This document shows positions 1-3,885 of a stretch of DNA of 28,827 nt, in pieces; within the stretch, counting starts at the first letter, position 1, and every line of letters begins with the position of its first letter. Below the pieces are notes generated by a model. The model had not been told where the DNA came from, did not search any database, and was given only the letters and a program-made list of their open reading frames with translations. Origin of the DNA: an uncultured Candidatus Saccharibacteria bacterium (GTDB lineage: Bacteria; Patescibacteriota; Saccharimonadia; Saccharimonadales; UBA4665). The stretch is from positions 1 through 28,827 of the forward strand of contig CAYVOS010000001.1 in NCBI GenBank assembly GCA_964453515.1. Reading direction: 5' to 3'. The translations under genes and the position numbers were made by a program.

Positions 1-10
1 AAGGGGGACT

Positions 11-461
11 ATGAATCAAGAGACTAGCCCCACCACGCAAGAATGACCATTTGACGTAGAAGAACAGACCTTTGGTCTGGCATACAGTAGAGCTCATTTT
101 GACGAAGTACCGGTAGGACTGTTGTACCGTCGTGAAACTCAGATGGTCGTTACGCTCAGGTTTTCCCTGGACGCCAAAGAACCAACGGATTGGACCTTTT
201 CGCGTCGATCACTTGTGTGGGGATACTTTGAAACAAGTGGTGGAGCCGAAGTCCAAGTGGATCCCTGGGAAGACAATATCCTGCTTATTAAGCTAAATCT
301 CCAAAAAGCTGCTAAAACACGAATCGTTTTCCCGCTAGAAAGTGTTCAAACCTTTTTTAGATCATTCGTATAAAACTGTTCCAACAAGAGATGAAGCAGA
401 TCTTGTAGCGGGCGCCCTCGACGACTGGCGCGAAGATCATATGGCAGTCATACCGGCTTAA
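11..461 (+). pseudogene. SsgA-like (SALP) cell-division regulator gene with one nonsense codon and one +1 frameshift
   Basis: ATG at 11 follows AAGGGGG and is in frame with track ORF 122..373, but TGA falls at 44-46. The translation VPVGLLY..VVTLRF..PTDWTFSRRSL..G..SGGAEVQVDP matches the SsgA-family pattern I recall. Removing one T from the T6 run at 353-358 gives FLDHSYKTVPTRDE, the typical SALP C-terminal segment, and ends at TAA 459-461, overlapping the lepA stop in TTAA. Reconstructed length is 149 aa. Confidence 0.75.
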
Positions 462-2236
462 GCCCGTTTGAGCATCACTGTAAACGCTTCGGCAGGAATG
501 TCTATTTTGCCGAAATGCTTCATACGGGCCTTGCCACGTTTCTGTTTAGCGAGTAGCTTCTTTTTCCGTGAGACATCGCCACCATACAAATAGCCGGTGA
601 CATCTTTTCGGTACGCGGACAGGTCCTCACGGGCAATAAATTTGCCACCAATCGCCGCCTGCAAAGCGACTTGGAAGTTCTGTCGCGGTATGACCTCTTT
701 AAGTTTTTCAACAGTTGTTCGCCCTAAGCTCATAGATTCTGAACGGTGTACCATAATACTTAAGACGTCAACCTTCTCTCCAGCTACGTAAAAATCTAAG
801 CGAACTAAATCTTCAGTCCGGTAGTCCGCTAGCTCATAGTTAAACGAGCCGTAACCGCTCGTGAGACTTTTTAACTGGTCGTAAAAATCCGTGAGTAAGT
901 TTGCCAGCGGCGCCTCAAAGGTTACTACCGCCCGGGTGTCGACGTAACTTAAATTCTTATGCACGCCGCGTTTGCCCGCAATTAATTGAATGATCGCACC
1001 AACGTAATCTTGCGGCGCAACAATTTCACCCTTAATCCATGGCTCACGAATTTCAGCTATCTTGGAAGGATCGGGCAAATCCGAGGCACTCTTAATGTCC
1101 AGTTCATCCCCGTTATTCATCACCACATGGTAATCGGTAGACGGGTTCGTAACGATCAACTCCAGGTTGTATTCCCGTTCCAAACGTTCACGAACGATAT
1201 CCATGTGGAGTAACCCTAAAAAGCCGATACGTACACCGGATCCAAGTACAGGTGAATTCTCCGGCTCAAACTGCAGGGCCGAATCGCTGAGTGACAGTTT
1301 CTCGATTGCCTCTTTCAGTTCTTGGTAAAATTCGTTACTCTCCGGAAAAAAGCCGGCATACACGAATGGTTTGACGTCCTGGTAACCGGGCAACGCCACC
1401 GACGCAGGTTGTTTAGCTAATGTCACAGTATCGCCGACCCGGGCTTCTCGAGTACTCTTCAAGTTCGTAACGATGTAACCAATTTCACCTGTCCCCAGAA
1501 CGGAATTCGGCGACATGTCAGGCTTGAGGCTACCAACTTCCAGGGCGATACCTTTTGCGCTGCTTGCTATCATCTGGATGTTATCGTTCTTGCCAATCTT
1601 GCCGTCAACTGTTCGAATGTAGAGAATAACGCCCCGATAATCGTCATAGTAGCTGTCGAAAATAAGCGCTCTCGTCGGCGCGTCGTGTTTCCCTGCAGGC
1701 GATGGAACGTCGCGCACGATGCGTTCCAGAACCTGATCGACGCCCTGCCCGGTCTTTGCGGAAATATGCAGGATATCTTCCGGCTTGCAGCCCAACAAGC
1801 TGACAACTTCTGCGCTGACTTTTTCAACATCAGCTGCCGGTAGGTCAATCTTGTTTAACACCGGAATAATTGTCAGATCGGCAGCAATGGCCGAGTACAC
1901 ATTCGCAAGCGTTTGCGCTTGCAATCCCTGCGTCGCATCGACAACCAGAATGGCGCCCTCGCAGGCTTCAAGACTCCGGGATACCTCATAGCTAAAATCG
2001 ACATGTCCGGGCGTATCAATTAAGTTGAGCTCATAGTCTTTGTACGCCATACGCACCGGCTGCAGCTTGATGGTGATGCCGCGCTCGCGCTCCAAATCCA
2101 TGCGATCGAGCAACTGCTCGCGCATATCACGTTTCTCAACGGTCCCAGTGAGTTCAAGCAGGCGATCGGCAAGCGTTGACTTGCCATGATCAATGTGCGC
2201 AATAATACAAAAATTTCTAATACGATCTTCGGCCAT
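458..2236 (-). CDS. lepA: Translation elongation factor 4 (LepA)
   Basis: AHIDHGKSTLADR, DTPGH and NKID GTPase motifs; RERGITIK; LepA C-terminal RKDV..GGDVSRKKKLL.KQKRGK.RMK; 592 aa. Confidence 0.98.
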   Translation of the reverse strand: MAEDRIRNFCIIAHIDHGKSTLADRLLELTGTVEKRDMREQLLDRMDLERERGITIKLQPVRMAYKDYELNLIDTPGHVDFSYEVSRSLEACEGAILVVDATQGLQAQTLANVYSAIAADLTIIPVLNKIDLPAADVEKVSAEVVSLLGCKPEDILHISAKTGQGVDQVLERIVRDVPSPAGKHDAPTRALIFDSYYDDYRGVILYIRTVDGKIGKNDNIQMIASSAKGIALEVGSLKPDMSPNSVLGTGEIGYIVTNLKSTREARVGDTVTLAKQPASVALPGYQDVKPFVYAGFFPESNEFYQELKEAIEKLSLSDSALQFEPENSPVLGSGVRIGFLGLLHMDIVRERLEREYNLELIVTNPSTDYHVVMNNGDELDIKSASDLPDPSKIAEIREPWIKGEIVAPQDYVGAIIQLIAGKRGVHKNLSYVDTRAVVTFEAPLANLLTDFYDQLKSLTSGYGSFNYELADYRTEDLVRLDFYVAGEKVDVLSIMVHRSESMSLGRTTVEKLKEVIPRQNFQVALQAAIGGKFIAREDLSAYRKDVTGYLYGGDVSRKKKLLAKQKRGKARMKHFGKIDIPAEAFTVMLKRA

Positions 2237-2280: not shown

Positions 2281-3885
2281 CTAATACTGAATGCTTATCG
2301 GCTTCAAAACGAGTTGTTTAACGCGCTTGAACAACGGCTCAACTTCCTCCAGGCCAAAGAGCGCCGAGACGCCCACATGCACACCGCCTACAATCAAGGC
2401 AATGAGAAGTAGCTTTGTCCCCAACGTCGTAATACCGCGGTCGTTAATGCCGAGCGGGAATAAAGAGGCAACGGTTGAGCCAGCAACGACGGTAAAGCCG
2501 GTAACTGAAATAATCCTACCGAGTCCACCAAAGAATGTCATGTCGAGCAACTTATGGTCACGGTAGATCATGATCGCAAACAAAATAAATACCTCAACCA
2601 TCGACACGATCGACTGCGCGAGCGCCAGTCCAACTACCCCATACTCTGTGGGGCGCGATAGACTGATGGCGAGGAAAACATTAAGACCAATGGTAAAAAT
2701 CGAGACAAAGAGCGGTGTTTTGGTATCTTTTTGGGCATAGTACCAACGTGAAACAATAGTGTAAATGGTGCGGAAAAGGATCGAGACCGTCAAGAATCCG
2801 AAGATGACAGCAATTTCTGGTTCGTTGCTACCAAAGATAATGCGCGCTAGGTAGCCACGGGCGAAGTAAGATACTACTACGATCGGCATTGTAATCCATA
2901 TCATGGCCCGCAAGATGCGTAAAAAATCACGGCGGAAGAGGTCTGGGCGCCCCTGGCTTAACCGCTGGTTCAACCGCGGAAATGCTGCGGTTGAAATTGC
3001 CGTCCCAATCAAGAGAATCGGGGCAGTTTGCATGGTATAGGCATAGTTATAAAAGCTAATAAAGCTCTGACCCAAATGACTCGCGATATTCGTCTCAACG
3101 ATGTTCTCGATTTGATCAATGCCCTGGTCAAGCGAACGTGGCGGTAGGTTGTATAAAATAGAGCGGAAATCCTTAGATCGCCACGTAATCTTCGGGTGCC
3201 AATGGAATTTGGTGCCATAGAGACCTATGGCAACGACCGCTAGTTGCAGGACGCCGCCAGCAAGTGCCCCGATACCCAGCCCTACTAGCCCGATGTTGTG
3301 CCGGAAGATGAGAATACTTGCAATAATTGACGCATTATAAAAAAACGGTGCAATGGCGTAAAAGAAAAAACGGCCCATTGTTTGTTGCGTCGCCGTCAGT
3401 ACGCCGGAAAGTGTAAATAACAGTGGGTTGAGCGCAATGAGACGCATGATAACAACCGCGTTATGCAGCTGTGCTGGCGTGAGGTGCGGCGCAACCACGT
3501 AGTGGACGAGGGGTTCGGCAAATACAAAAATAATTACCGCGACAGCACTCATGACGATGGCCAGCAGGTTCATCAGGCTCGCGGAAAGTTCCCACATACC
3601 TTTGCGGTCACCTTTTTGCAAACGATCAGTTAAGACAGGCATGAATGCTACCCCCAGTGCACCGGCAGCGAGCGTAAAGAAGAAGAAATCCGGAATGTTA
3701 AAGGCAGCGAAGTAAGCATCAGTACTCTGTGGTCCAGTACTCGGAAAGTTAGCACTAACCATTTTGGTGCGCAGAAAACCAAGTACTTGACCAAGCAATG
3801 ATGAACCAATCAACAAGGTTGCAACAGCGCTGAACGGTACTCGCTTGGGACGTTTCAACTTCTTAGTATTCGCAATAGAATTCAT
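2281..3885 (-). CDS. murJ: Lipid II flippase MurJ (MviN)
   Basis: 534 aa with many hydrophobic helices; MviN-type segments SQVLG-like GQVLGFLR, DAYFAAFNIPDFF, and YYAQKDTKTP. Confidence 0.9.
   Translation of the reverse strand: MNSIANTKKLKRPKRVPFSAVATLLIGSSLLGQVLGFLRTKMVSANFPSTGPQSTDAYFAAFNIPDFFFFTLAAGALGVAFMPVLTDRLQKGDRKGMWELSASLMNLLAIVMSAVAVIIFVFAEPLVHYVVAPHLTPAQLHNAVVIMRLIALNPLLFTLSGVLTATQQTMGRFFFYAIAPFFYNASIIASILIFRHNIGLVGLGIGALAGGVLQLAVVAIGLYGTKFHWHPKITWRSKDFRSILYNLPPRSLDQGIDQIENIVETNIASHLGQSFISFYNYAYTMQTAPILLIGTAISTAAFPRLNQRLSQGRPDLFRRDFLRILRAMIWITMPIVVVSYFARGYLARIIFGSNEPEIAVIFGFLTVSILFRTIYTIVSRWYYAQKDTKTPLFVSIFTIGLNVFLAISLSRPTEYGVVGLALAQSIVSMVEVFILFAIMIYRDHKLLDMTFFGGLGRIISVTGFTVVAGSTVASLFPLGINDRGITTLGTKLLLIALIVGGVHVGVSALFGLEEVEPLFKRVKQLVLKPISIQY

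Follow-up and report, generated by a model that had tools for sequence, protein, structure and literature searches.

Positions 11-461 of the window, by which we mean the whole 28,827-nt stretch of DNA analysed here, are very likely a pseudogene of recent age, derived from a gene for an SsgA-like protein (SALP) specific to a lineage of Saccharimonadales. The gene is disabled by a CGA>TGA change and an insertion in a T-run; its intact form would be SsgB-like, and the family would have come from actinomycetes. In textbooks, SALPs figure as "actinomycete-only" proteins of developmental cell division, and SsgB serves as a taxonomic marker for actinomycetes. They have been stated to be restricted to morphologically complex actinomycetes (PMC3814722, PMC2440963), and SsgB is the protein that brings FtsZ to the sites of future septa in Streptomyces (PMC8061694, PMC3814722). 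A full-text literature search pairing SsgA or SsgB with Saccharibacteria, TM7 or Patescibacteria returned nothing relevant, the single match for SsgB and Patescibacteria being an unrelated MAG announcement.

Family identity and predicted fold

The assignment of the region to the SALP family, as in the original prediction, is secure, because it follows from the Pfam score, from sequence matches to PDB entries and from fold matches. The main frame matches the Pfam SsgA family (PF04686) with 42.4-42.8 bits and an E-value of about 5e-11, the gathering cut-off being 25; the matched part of the profile, positions 1-87 of 98, corresponds to window 107-361. The two pieces of the window copy align head-to-tail and collinearly with intact SALPs and with the syntenic orthologue P0001, a 160-aa protein from a sister species and the one close relative returned by a search of 5.8 billion proteins (72% identity by BLASTP; 105/149 residues, or 70%, in a separate alignment). 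P0001 matches SsgB structures by sequence (6slc, E 1e-9; 3cm1, E 2e-8). When its AF2 (AlphaFold) model (pLDDT 91.2, pTM 0.81) was compared with the PDB by Foldseek, the top eight matches were all SsgB (3cm1, 6slc, 6suj; E about 1e-8, TM by target 0.73-0.81), and every match beyond SsgB had an E-value above 2e-3. The SsgB-type alpha+beta fold was established on this intact orthologue, not on the broken window copy. None of the NCBIfam equivalog cut-offs was reached by P0001, the best match being the SsgD model (55.7 bits against a cut-off of 185); by these scores, none of the named Streptomyces SALPs is its equivalog.

SsgB, the archetype of the SALPs, which directs FtsZ to sporulation septa, is in Streptomyces coelicolor (PDB 6SLC/6SUJ) and in Thermobifida fusca (PDB 3CM1), as here, a single-domain PF04686 protein of about 140-160 aa. 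It shares with the intact orthologue the predicted fold and the core motifs W-x-F-x-R-x-L and G-x-G-D/x-V-x-V-x-P, although identity over the structural alignment is only 24-29%. SsgB is found in Actinomycetota, whereas the present SALP belongs to Patescibacteria and lies between murF and lepA, a neighbourhood not given for ssgB in the cited papers. Of the conserved SALP core residues (DP[YF]A[VI]; W-x-F-x-R; G-x-G-D-V-x-V-x-P), the window copy retains the W, R, L, G and F columns. Unlike SsgB, it is broken, and the Pro and Ala of its DPxAV motif are replaced (P44>Q, A46>V); both residues are invariant in the 11-sequence alignment A3, and the Pro also in the 54-sequence alignment A5.

Structure of the broken gene

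The window begins at base 1 of contig C1 of the genome G000 (991 kb, 162 contigs, 84% complete), so that neither the promoter nor the murF gene upstream is contained in the contig. The features of the region are the following.

1..10, plus strand: 5' leader with a Shine-Dalgarno-like AAGGGGG; from the sequence, aligns with the orthologue's AGGGA leader
11..43, plus strand: SALP pseudogene codons 1-11 with the ATG start; from translation, collinear with P0001 residues 1-11
44..46, plus strand: premature stop TGA at codon 12, CGA (Arg) in the orthologue; from DNA alignment A2 and a Logan contig
47..352, plus strand: central coding remnant in the frame of ATG 11, SsgA domain core; Pfam PF04686 on 107-361, 42.4 bits
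353..358, plus strand: T6 run holding one inserted base compared with the orthologue (+1 frameshift); from alignment A2 and a Logan contig
357..461, plus strand: shifted-frame remnant of the C-terminal coding part with the C-terminal helices, ending in TAA 459-461; from translation and alignments
458..2236, minus strand: lepA, 592 aa, convergent; from the ORF list, Pfam GTP_EFTU and LepA_C, 95% identical to LepA of the orthologous locus
2281..3885, minus strand: murJ-type lipid II flippase gene, downstream of lepA; from the ORF, 90-96% identical to orthologues

By homology with the secondary structure of the orthologue model, the central remnant comprises strands 1-7, helix 1 and the start of helix 2. 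The frame of ATG 11, read past the TGA, runs to TAA 371-373, and a second frame, offset by one base, spans 342..461 and ends at TAA 459-461, both on the plus strand. With one T dropped, the two join into a 149-codon reading over window 11-461. This is the reconstruction proposed originally, and all its coordinates (ATG 11, TGA 44-46, T6 353-358, TAA 459-461) hold. The SALP stop TAA 459-461 overlaps the lepA stop as TTAA 458-461; this interlock had been offered in support of the reconstruction, and it is kept in the orthologue (L097: SALP 24-506, lepA 503-2281).

In the DNA alignment A2 with P0001, the TGA stands opposite CGA, and the T-run of the window (ACCTTTTTT) is one base longer than that of the orthologue (ACATTTTT), so that the gene is broken by a stop and a frameshift just as had been described. 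In addition, 33 nt are missing from the window, in frame, after position 451; the length of the SALP 3' tail differs among relatives. No ordinary ORF in the region is longer than 83 codons, the length of the one beginning at TTG 122, while the orthologues P0001-P0006 each have a single ORF of about 120-160 codons, which the window copy lacks. TTG 122 is also the next in-frame start after the TGA and lies, by homology with the P0001 model, within the second strand, and the frameshift falls within the helix formed by residues 109-122 of that model. As there is no earlier in-frame start, and given the frameshift, any product would be missing the first strands as well as both C-terminal helices, and formation of the SsgB fold would be impossible.

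No second SALP copy was found in G000 (84% complete), where the window gene gave the only match. A murF-like gene, 81% identical to the neighbour of the orthologue, lies at G000:C119:6-1253 on the minus strand (L185) and ends at the edge of contig C119. Contigs C119 and C1 are probably adjacent, the assembly being broken in the spacer of roughly 100 nt between murF and the SALP gene.

A conserved locus in a narrow clade

On the contigs carrying P0001, a MurF-like ligase gene is located upstream on the same strand, followed by the SALP gene, a convergent lepA with overlapping stops, and murJ beyond it. An exhaustive HMMER scan of 1.84 billion representatives yielded 389 SALP matches, only five of which were close (P0002-P0006, 36-53% identity). 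Four of these five relatives were looked up. The contigs of P0002 and P0003 have the full arrangement murF > SALP < lepA < murJ, and an intact orthologue beside lepA, the search for which had been proposed as a check, thus exists at the P0001 locus and at these two. The contigs of P0005 and P0006 are shorter than 2 kb and hold no more than a gene upstream and a fragment of a convergent gene downstream; where its DNA could be examined, the upstream gene is murF-like. At the loci of the clade, LepA is 91-97% and MurJ 90-96% identical to those of the window; the MurJ Pfam family was found on the orthologous genes in L180 and L181. In the tree, P0002-P0006 and the window copy form a clade with 100/100 support and a long stem.

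Hence, a narrow clade of Saccharimonadales has a single SALP of 156-162 aa between murF and lepA-murJ. Among 80 more distant Saccharimonadales lepA loci, no murF > SALP < lepA arrangement was found, and a SALP remnant downstream of lepA was present only at the locus of the genome G004; the arrangement is confined to the near relatives of the window. One further match to P0001, in Flavobacterium sp. UBA7680 (L178:2659-3291), was rejected, being a lipoprotein with the chance octapeptide QVEPWENN and not a SALP.

Selection and age of the loss

Between the window copy and P0001, dN/dS is 0.14 at dS 1.14, compared with 0.02 at dS 1.21 for lepA of the same loci. The value of 0.14 indicates purifying selection in both lines for most of their divergence and, as a consequence, a recent inactivation. 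Judged from these substitution patterns, the SALP was selected until recently and its loss is young. The signs of incipient decay in the window copy are weak. When amino acid changes were polarised with three outgroups, 22 fell on the window branch and nine on the P0001 branch (binomial p 0.03), an excess inseparable from the general rate of the lineage: for LepA the corresponding numbers are 15 and 10, and the SALP and LepA ratios are alike (Fisher p 0.41).

Within the clade, the SALP has a dN of 0.38-0.70, compared with 0.18-0.21 in murF and 0.04-0.05 in lepA, that is, SALP amino acids evolve at about 10 times the rate of lepA and 2-3 times that of murF. Synonymous sites are saturated in the clade (pS 0.72-0.84), and therefore statements on omega among its distant members are upper bounds only; the one computable pair has an omega of 0.25. 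On these comparisons, the clade SALP is old at the murF-lepA locus, constrained and fast-evolving, with purifying selection among distant members being weak at most.

Authenticity of the lesions and of the contig

Both lesions are genuine, on evidence that is good but not final. A Logan contig of run X1 matches window 251-670, including the T6 run, with 0 differences and 0 gaps, and a Logan contig of X3/X4 matches window 1-228, including the TGA, with 0 differences and extends 33 nt beyond the start of the contig. The runs are public mine-drainage data; X4 is probably X3 filed twice, and X1 may be the source sample of the MAG itself. The support comes from Logan contigs, not raw reads, at about 4x k-mer depth. 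Relative to an intact syntenic orthologue, the window copy carries lesions that are present in the DNA and unexplained by the genetic code, which is what defines a pseudogene.

It could be argued that the gene is intact in the organism and that the stop and the frameshift are errors of sequencing or assembly near a contig end and in a homopolymer. Indeed, the TGA is 44 nt from the contig start, the frameshift is within a homopolymer at a coverage of about 4x only, and a dN/dS of 0.14 is what would be expected of an intact gene. However, two differently built assemblies agree with the window letter for letter (X3/X4 over 1-228, X1 over 251-670), it is unlikely that a gene of 450 nt should hold two independent errors and the 1.8-kb lepA beside it not a single one, and the window copy also lacks two residues that are invariant in the family. 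We consider such errors improbable. Even less credit can be given to expression by recoding, with the TGA read through or reassigned and a programmed frameshift, or homopolymer phase variation, at the T-run. The T-run at the site of the shift is slippery, and some Patescibacteria (Gracilibacteria/SR1) reassign TGA, but in the window TGA terminates at least three other long ORFs, including two genes of the ATP-synthase operon, which makes recoding unlikely. Moreover, lepA, murJ and other conserved genes of the window are open under table 11, and none of the orthologous genes compared (five of five) needs recoding at either site. Finally, a T6 run offers little length for slipped-strand switching, which in any case would leave the nonsense codon in place.

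The remaining concern is that the SALP signal might be actinobacterial DNA, through contamination or a chimeric contig. It would agree with the description of SALPs as actinomycete-only (PMC3814722, PMC2440963) and with the position of the gene at a contig edge. Yet the stop codons of the SALP gene and lepA overlap, LepA is 79-95% identical to Saccharimonadales LepA, and the GC content of the SALP gene (0.466) fits the window (0.487) and not the SALP genes of Trebonia and Streptosporangiaceae (0.66-0.71). The SALP-lepA junction was also recovered from unrelated Logan, JGI and ENA assemblies, with the full arrangement including murF in three loci. In particular, the window LepA is 79-85% identical to that of some 80 genomes, nearly all of them Candidatus Saccharimonadales, Saccharibacteria or Patescibacteria; the matches include five rows labelled Nevskiaceae, Bacillota, Limnocylindrales and Burkholderiaceae, probably mislabelled bins, and a few labelled only "uncultured bacterium". 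Given the LepA identity, the matching GC content and the physical interlock with lepA, the contig is on sequence grounds saccharibacterial, as originally assumed, and not actinobacterial; contamination is excluded, and we assign it a negligible probability.

Distribution and origin of saccharibacterial SALPs

PF04686 was found in three of 41 near relatives and, patchily, in 11 of 401 sampled Saccharimonadia. Across Patescibacteria, two of 401 sampled genomes had it, the window's own and one of the same saccharibacterial family. A restriction of SALPs to morphologically complex actinomycetes does not hold given the saccharibacterial contig and the 11 Saccharimonadia. The saccharibacterial SALPs require at least three label changes on the tree and hence are not one group. 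The nearest rows to the window clade are the saccharibacterial copy of G427 and three proteins without a source label, with weak support.

Two SALPs of the same-genus genome G004 (isolate GZL_HY_2_bin.140; L002 and L004) and one of G126 (L006) fall within a Streptosporangiaceae/Treboniaceae clade (96/88 support). Like the window gene, they are SALPs in saccharibacterial genomes, but they are 60-76% identical to Streptosporangiaceae/Treboniaceae proteins and only about 27-34% to the window clade. Some saccharibacterial copies are thus, by similarity and tree position, clearly derived from actinomycetes.

The first G004 copy (L002:1417-1848 on G004:C45; the same as L098, JAICLK010000006.1) is 72-75% identical to Streptosporangiaceae/Trebonia SALPs. 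Its GC content is 0.676 against 0.524 for its flanks, and the flanking TauE-like gene has a 75%-identical homologue in another genome of the same genus that lacks the SALP, on a contig reaching beyond 389 kb. The donor-type GC content and a flank found without the SALP argue for a fresh transfer, and L002 looks like a very recent transfer from an actinomycete to a Saccharibacterium and, at the same time, a clue to the host. The actinomycete MAGs that match it best bear neighbouring accession numbers (JAICYD, JAICUO) and isolate names of a similar form, which suggests the same sampling campaign. The second G004 SALP (L004:1447-1914, minus strand, on G004:C24; the same as L077) is Trebonia-like, has 155 aa and a GC content of 0.491, and is convergent just downstream of lepA; on its other side lies a gene for a PrxQ-type peroxiredoxin in place of murF. 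In the free tree, L004 stands apart from the window clade, but a single origin of the two was not rejected (AU p 0.23).

As SALPs are common in actinomycetes and rare in Saccharimonadia, and as the G004 copy appears fresh, transfer from actinomycetes to Saccharibacteria is the likely direction for the family, inferred from its distribution and the L002-type copy. The proposal of a host-derived gene therefore stands in part: transfer is likely at the level of the family, while an actinomycete donor of the window clade itself is putative. Actinophage SALPs, for example those of Streptomyces phages, are likewise located outside actinomycete chromosomes and could be a vehicle of transfer, but there are no phage genes at the window locus. 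A phage origin was considered and rejected, as phage SALPs are no closer to the window clade and the only phage match to P0001, in Streptomyces phage Sham, is weak (E 2e-4, 35% over 57% of the query).

Several unusual SALP genes were also observed. A 1628-bp contig of a Saccharimonadia bin (L005, G142:C158) has two tandem SALP domains, one of them in a 377-codon open frame, which may reflect either a tandem duplication or DNA of an actinomycete placed in the wrong bin. A 3.2-kb Logan contig with a GC content of 0.49 carries two SALP genes (L188:1073-1483 and 2479-2835) among packed small ORFs and a radical-SAM-like gene; one of the two products, P0023, ranks with the closest outgroups to the window clade. 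P0050, of 855 aa, is a multi-repeat SALP with six SALP-like stretches.

Proposed history and function

Horizontal transfer would have brought the family from actinomycetes into Saccharimonadia, where one narrow Saccharimonadales clade has kept a SALP between murF and lepA-murJ. In the window lineage, the gene was disabled by a nonsense change (CGA>TGA) at codon 12 and by one base inserted in the T-run at about codon 116, the lineage having apparently dispensed with its SALP recently. By analogy with SsgB, the intact protein may be a positioning factor directed at FtsZ or at the septal wall in the symbiont's own division.

A part in the symbiont's own division or septal wall synthesis is the most likely role of the intact clade, in view of the location between the peptidoglycan genes murF and murJ, of no export signal being seen and of the presence of ftsA-ftsZ in the genome. 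The predicted complex of P0001 with the genome's own FtsZ (L189 1468-2820) scored 0.01, which is neutral on binding. The main alternative is that the intact members are effectors against the FtsZ or septation of an actinomycete host, and that the window copy died after a host switch had made the effector useless. Cultured Saccharibacteria live on Actinomycetota, and such a role would fit the repeated uptake of actinomycete SALPs by Saccharimonadia, the patchy presence (11/401) and the rapid evolution of the clade, whose dN is about 10 times that of lepA and 2-3 times that of murF. However, neither a signal peptide nor a neighbour linked to secretion was observed; the adjacent genes are murF, lepA and murJ. 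No positive selection was seen either: purifying selection in the clade is weak at most, with 0.25 for the computable pair and 0.14 for the window copy and P0001. On this evidence we regard an effector as unlikely and prefer a role in the symbiont's own division.

Implications

The window copy is a non-functional relic, and its value is that of a time-stamp of gene loss. The presence and turnover of SALPs in Saccharimonadia are of moderate interest. What the analysis adds is a SALP lineage that was retained under purifying selection at a fixed Saccharimonadales locus while synonymous sites became saturated, together with other Saccharimonadia that carry clearly actinomycete-type copies, one of which is still of actinomycete base composition. 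In addition, the only two matches in the 401-genome sample of Patescibacteria both belong to the saccharibacterial family of the window, whose lineage is now losing its SALP. Taken together, the retained clade, the actinomycete-type copies, the distribution and the loss show that the SALP family passes across the border between phyla that separates an epibiont from its usual hosts.

A broader and rather doubtful possibility is that Saccharimonadia have repeatedly captured the SsgB-type protein of their hosts, and that one such protein, fixed and fast-evolving between murF and lepA-murJ, positions the symbiont's own FtsZ or acts on host septation, its decay marking a change of host or of division mode. 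If so, the SALP decay in this mine-drainage lineage would mark such a change, and SALP type could predict the hosts of uncultured Saccharibacteria, for example Trebonia/Streptosporangiaceae for G004. The family offers a testable handle on how ultra-small epibionts place their division site and on the hosts of uncultured Saccharibacteria from soil and mines.
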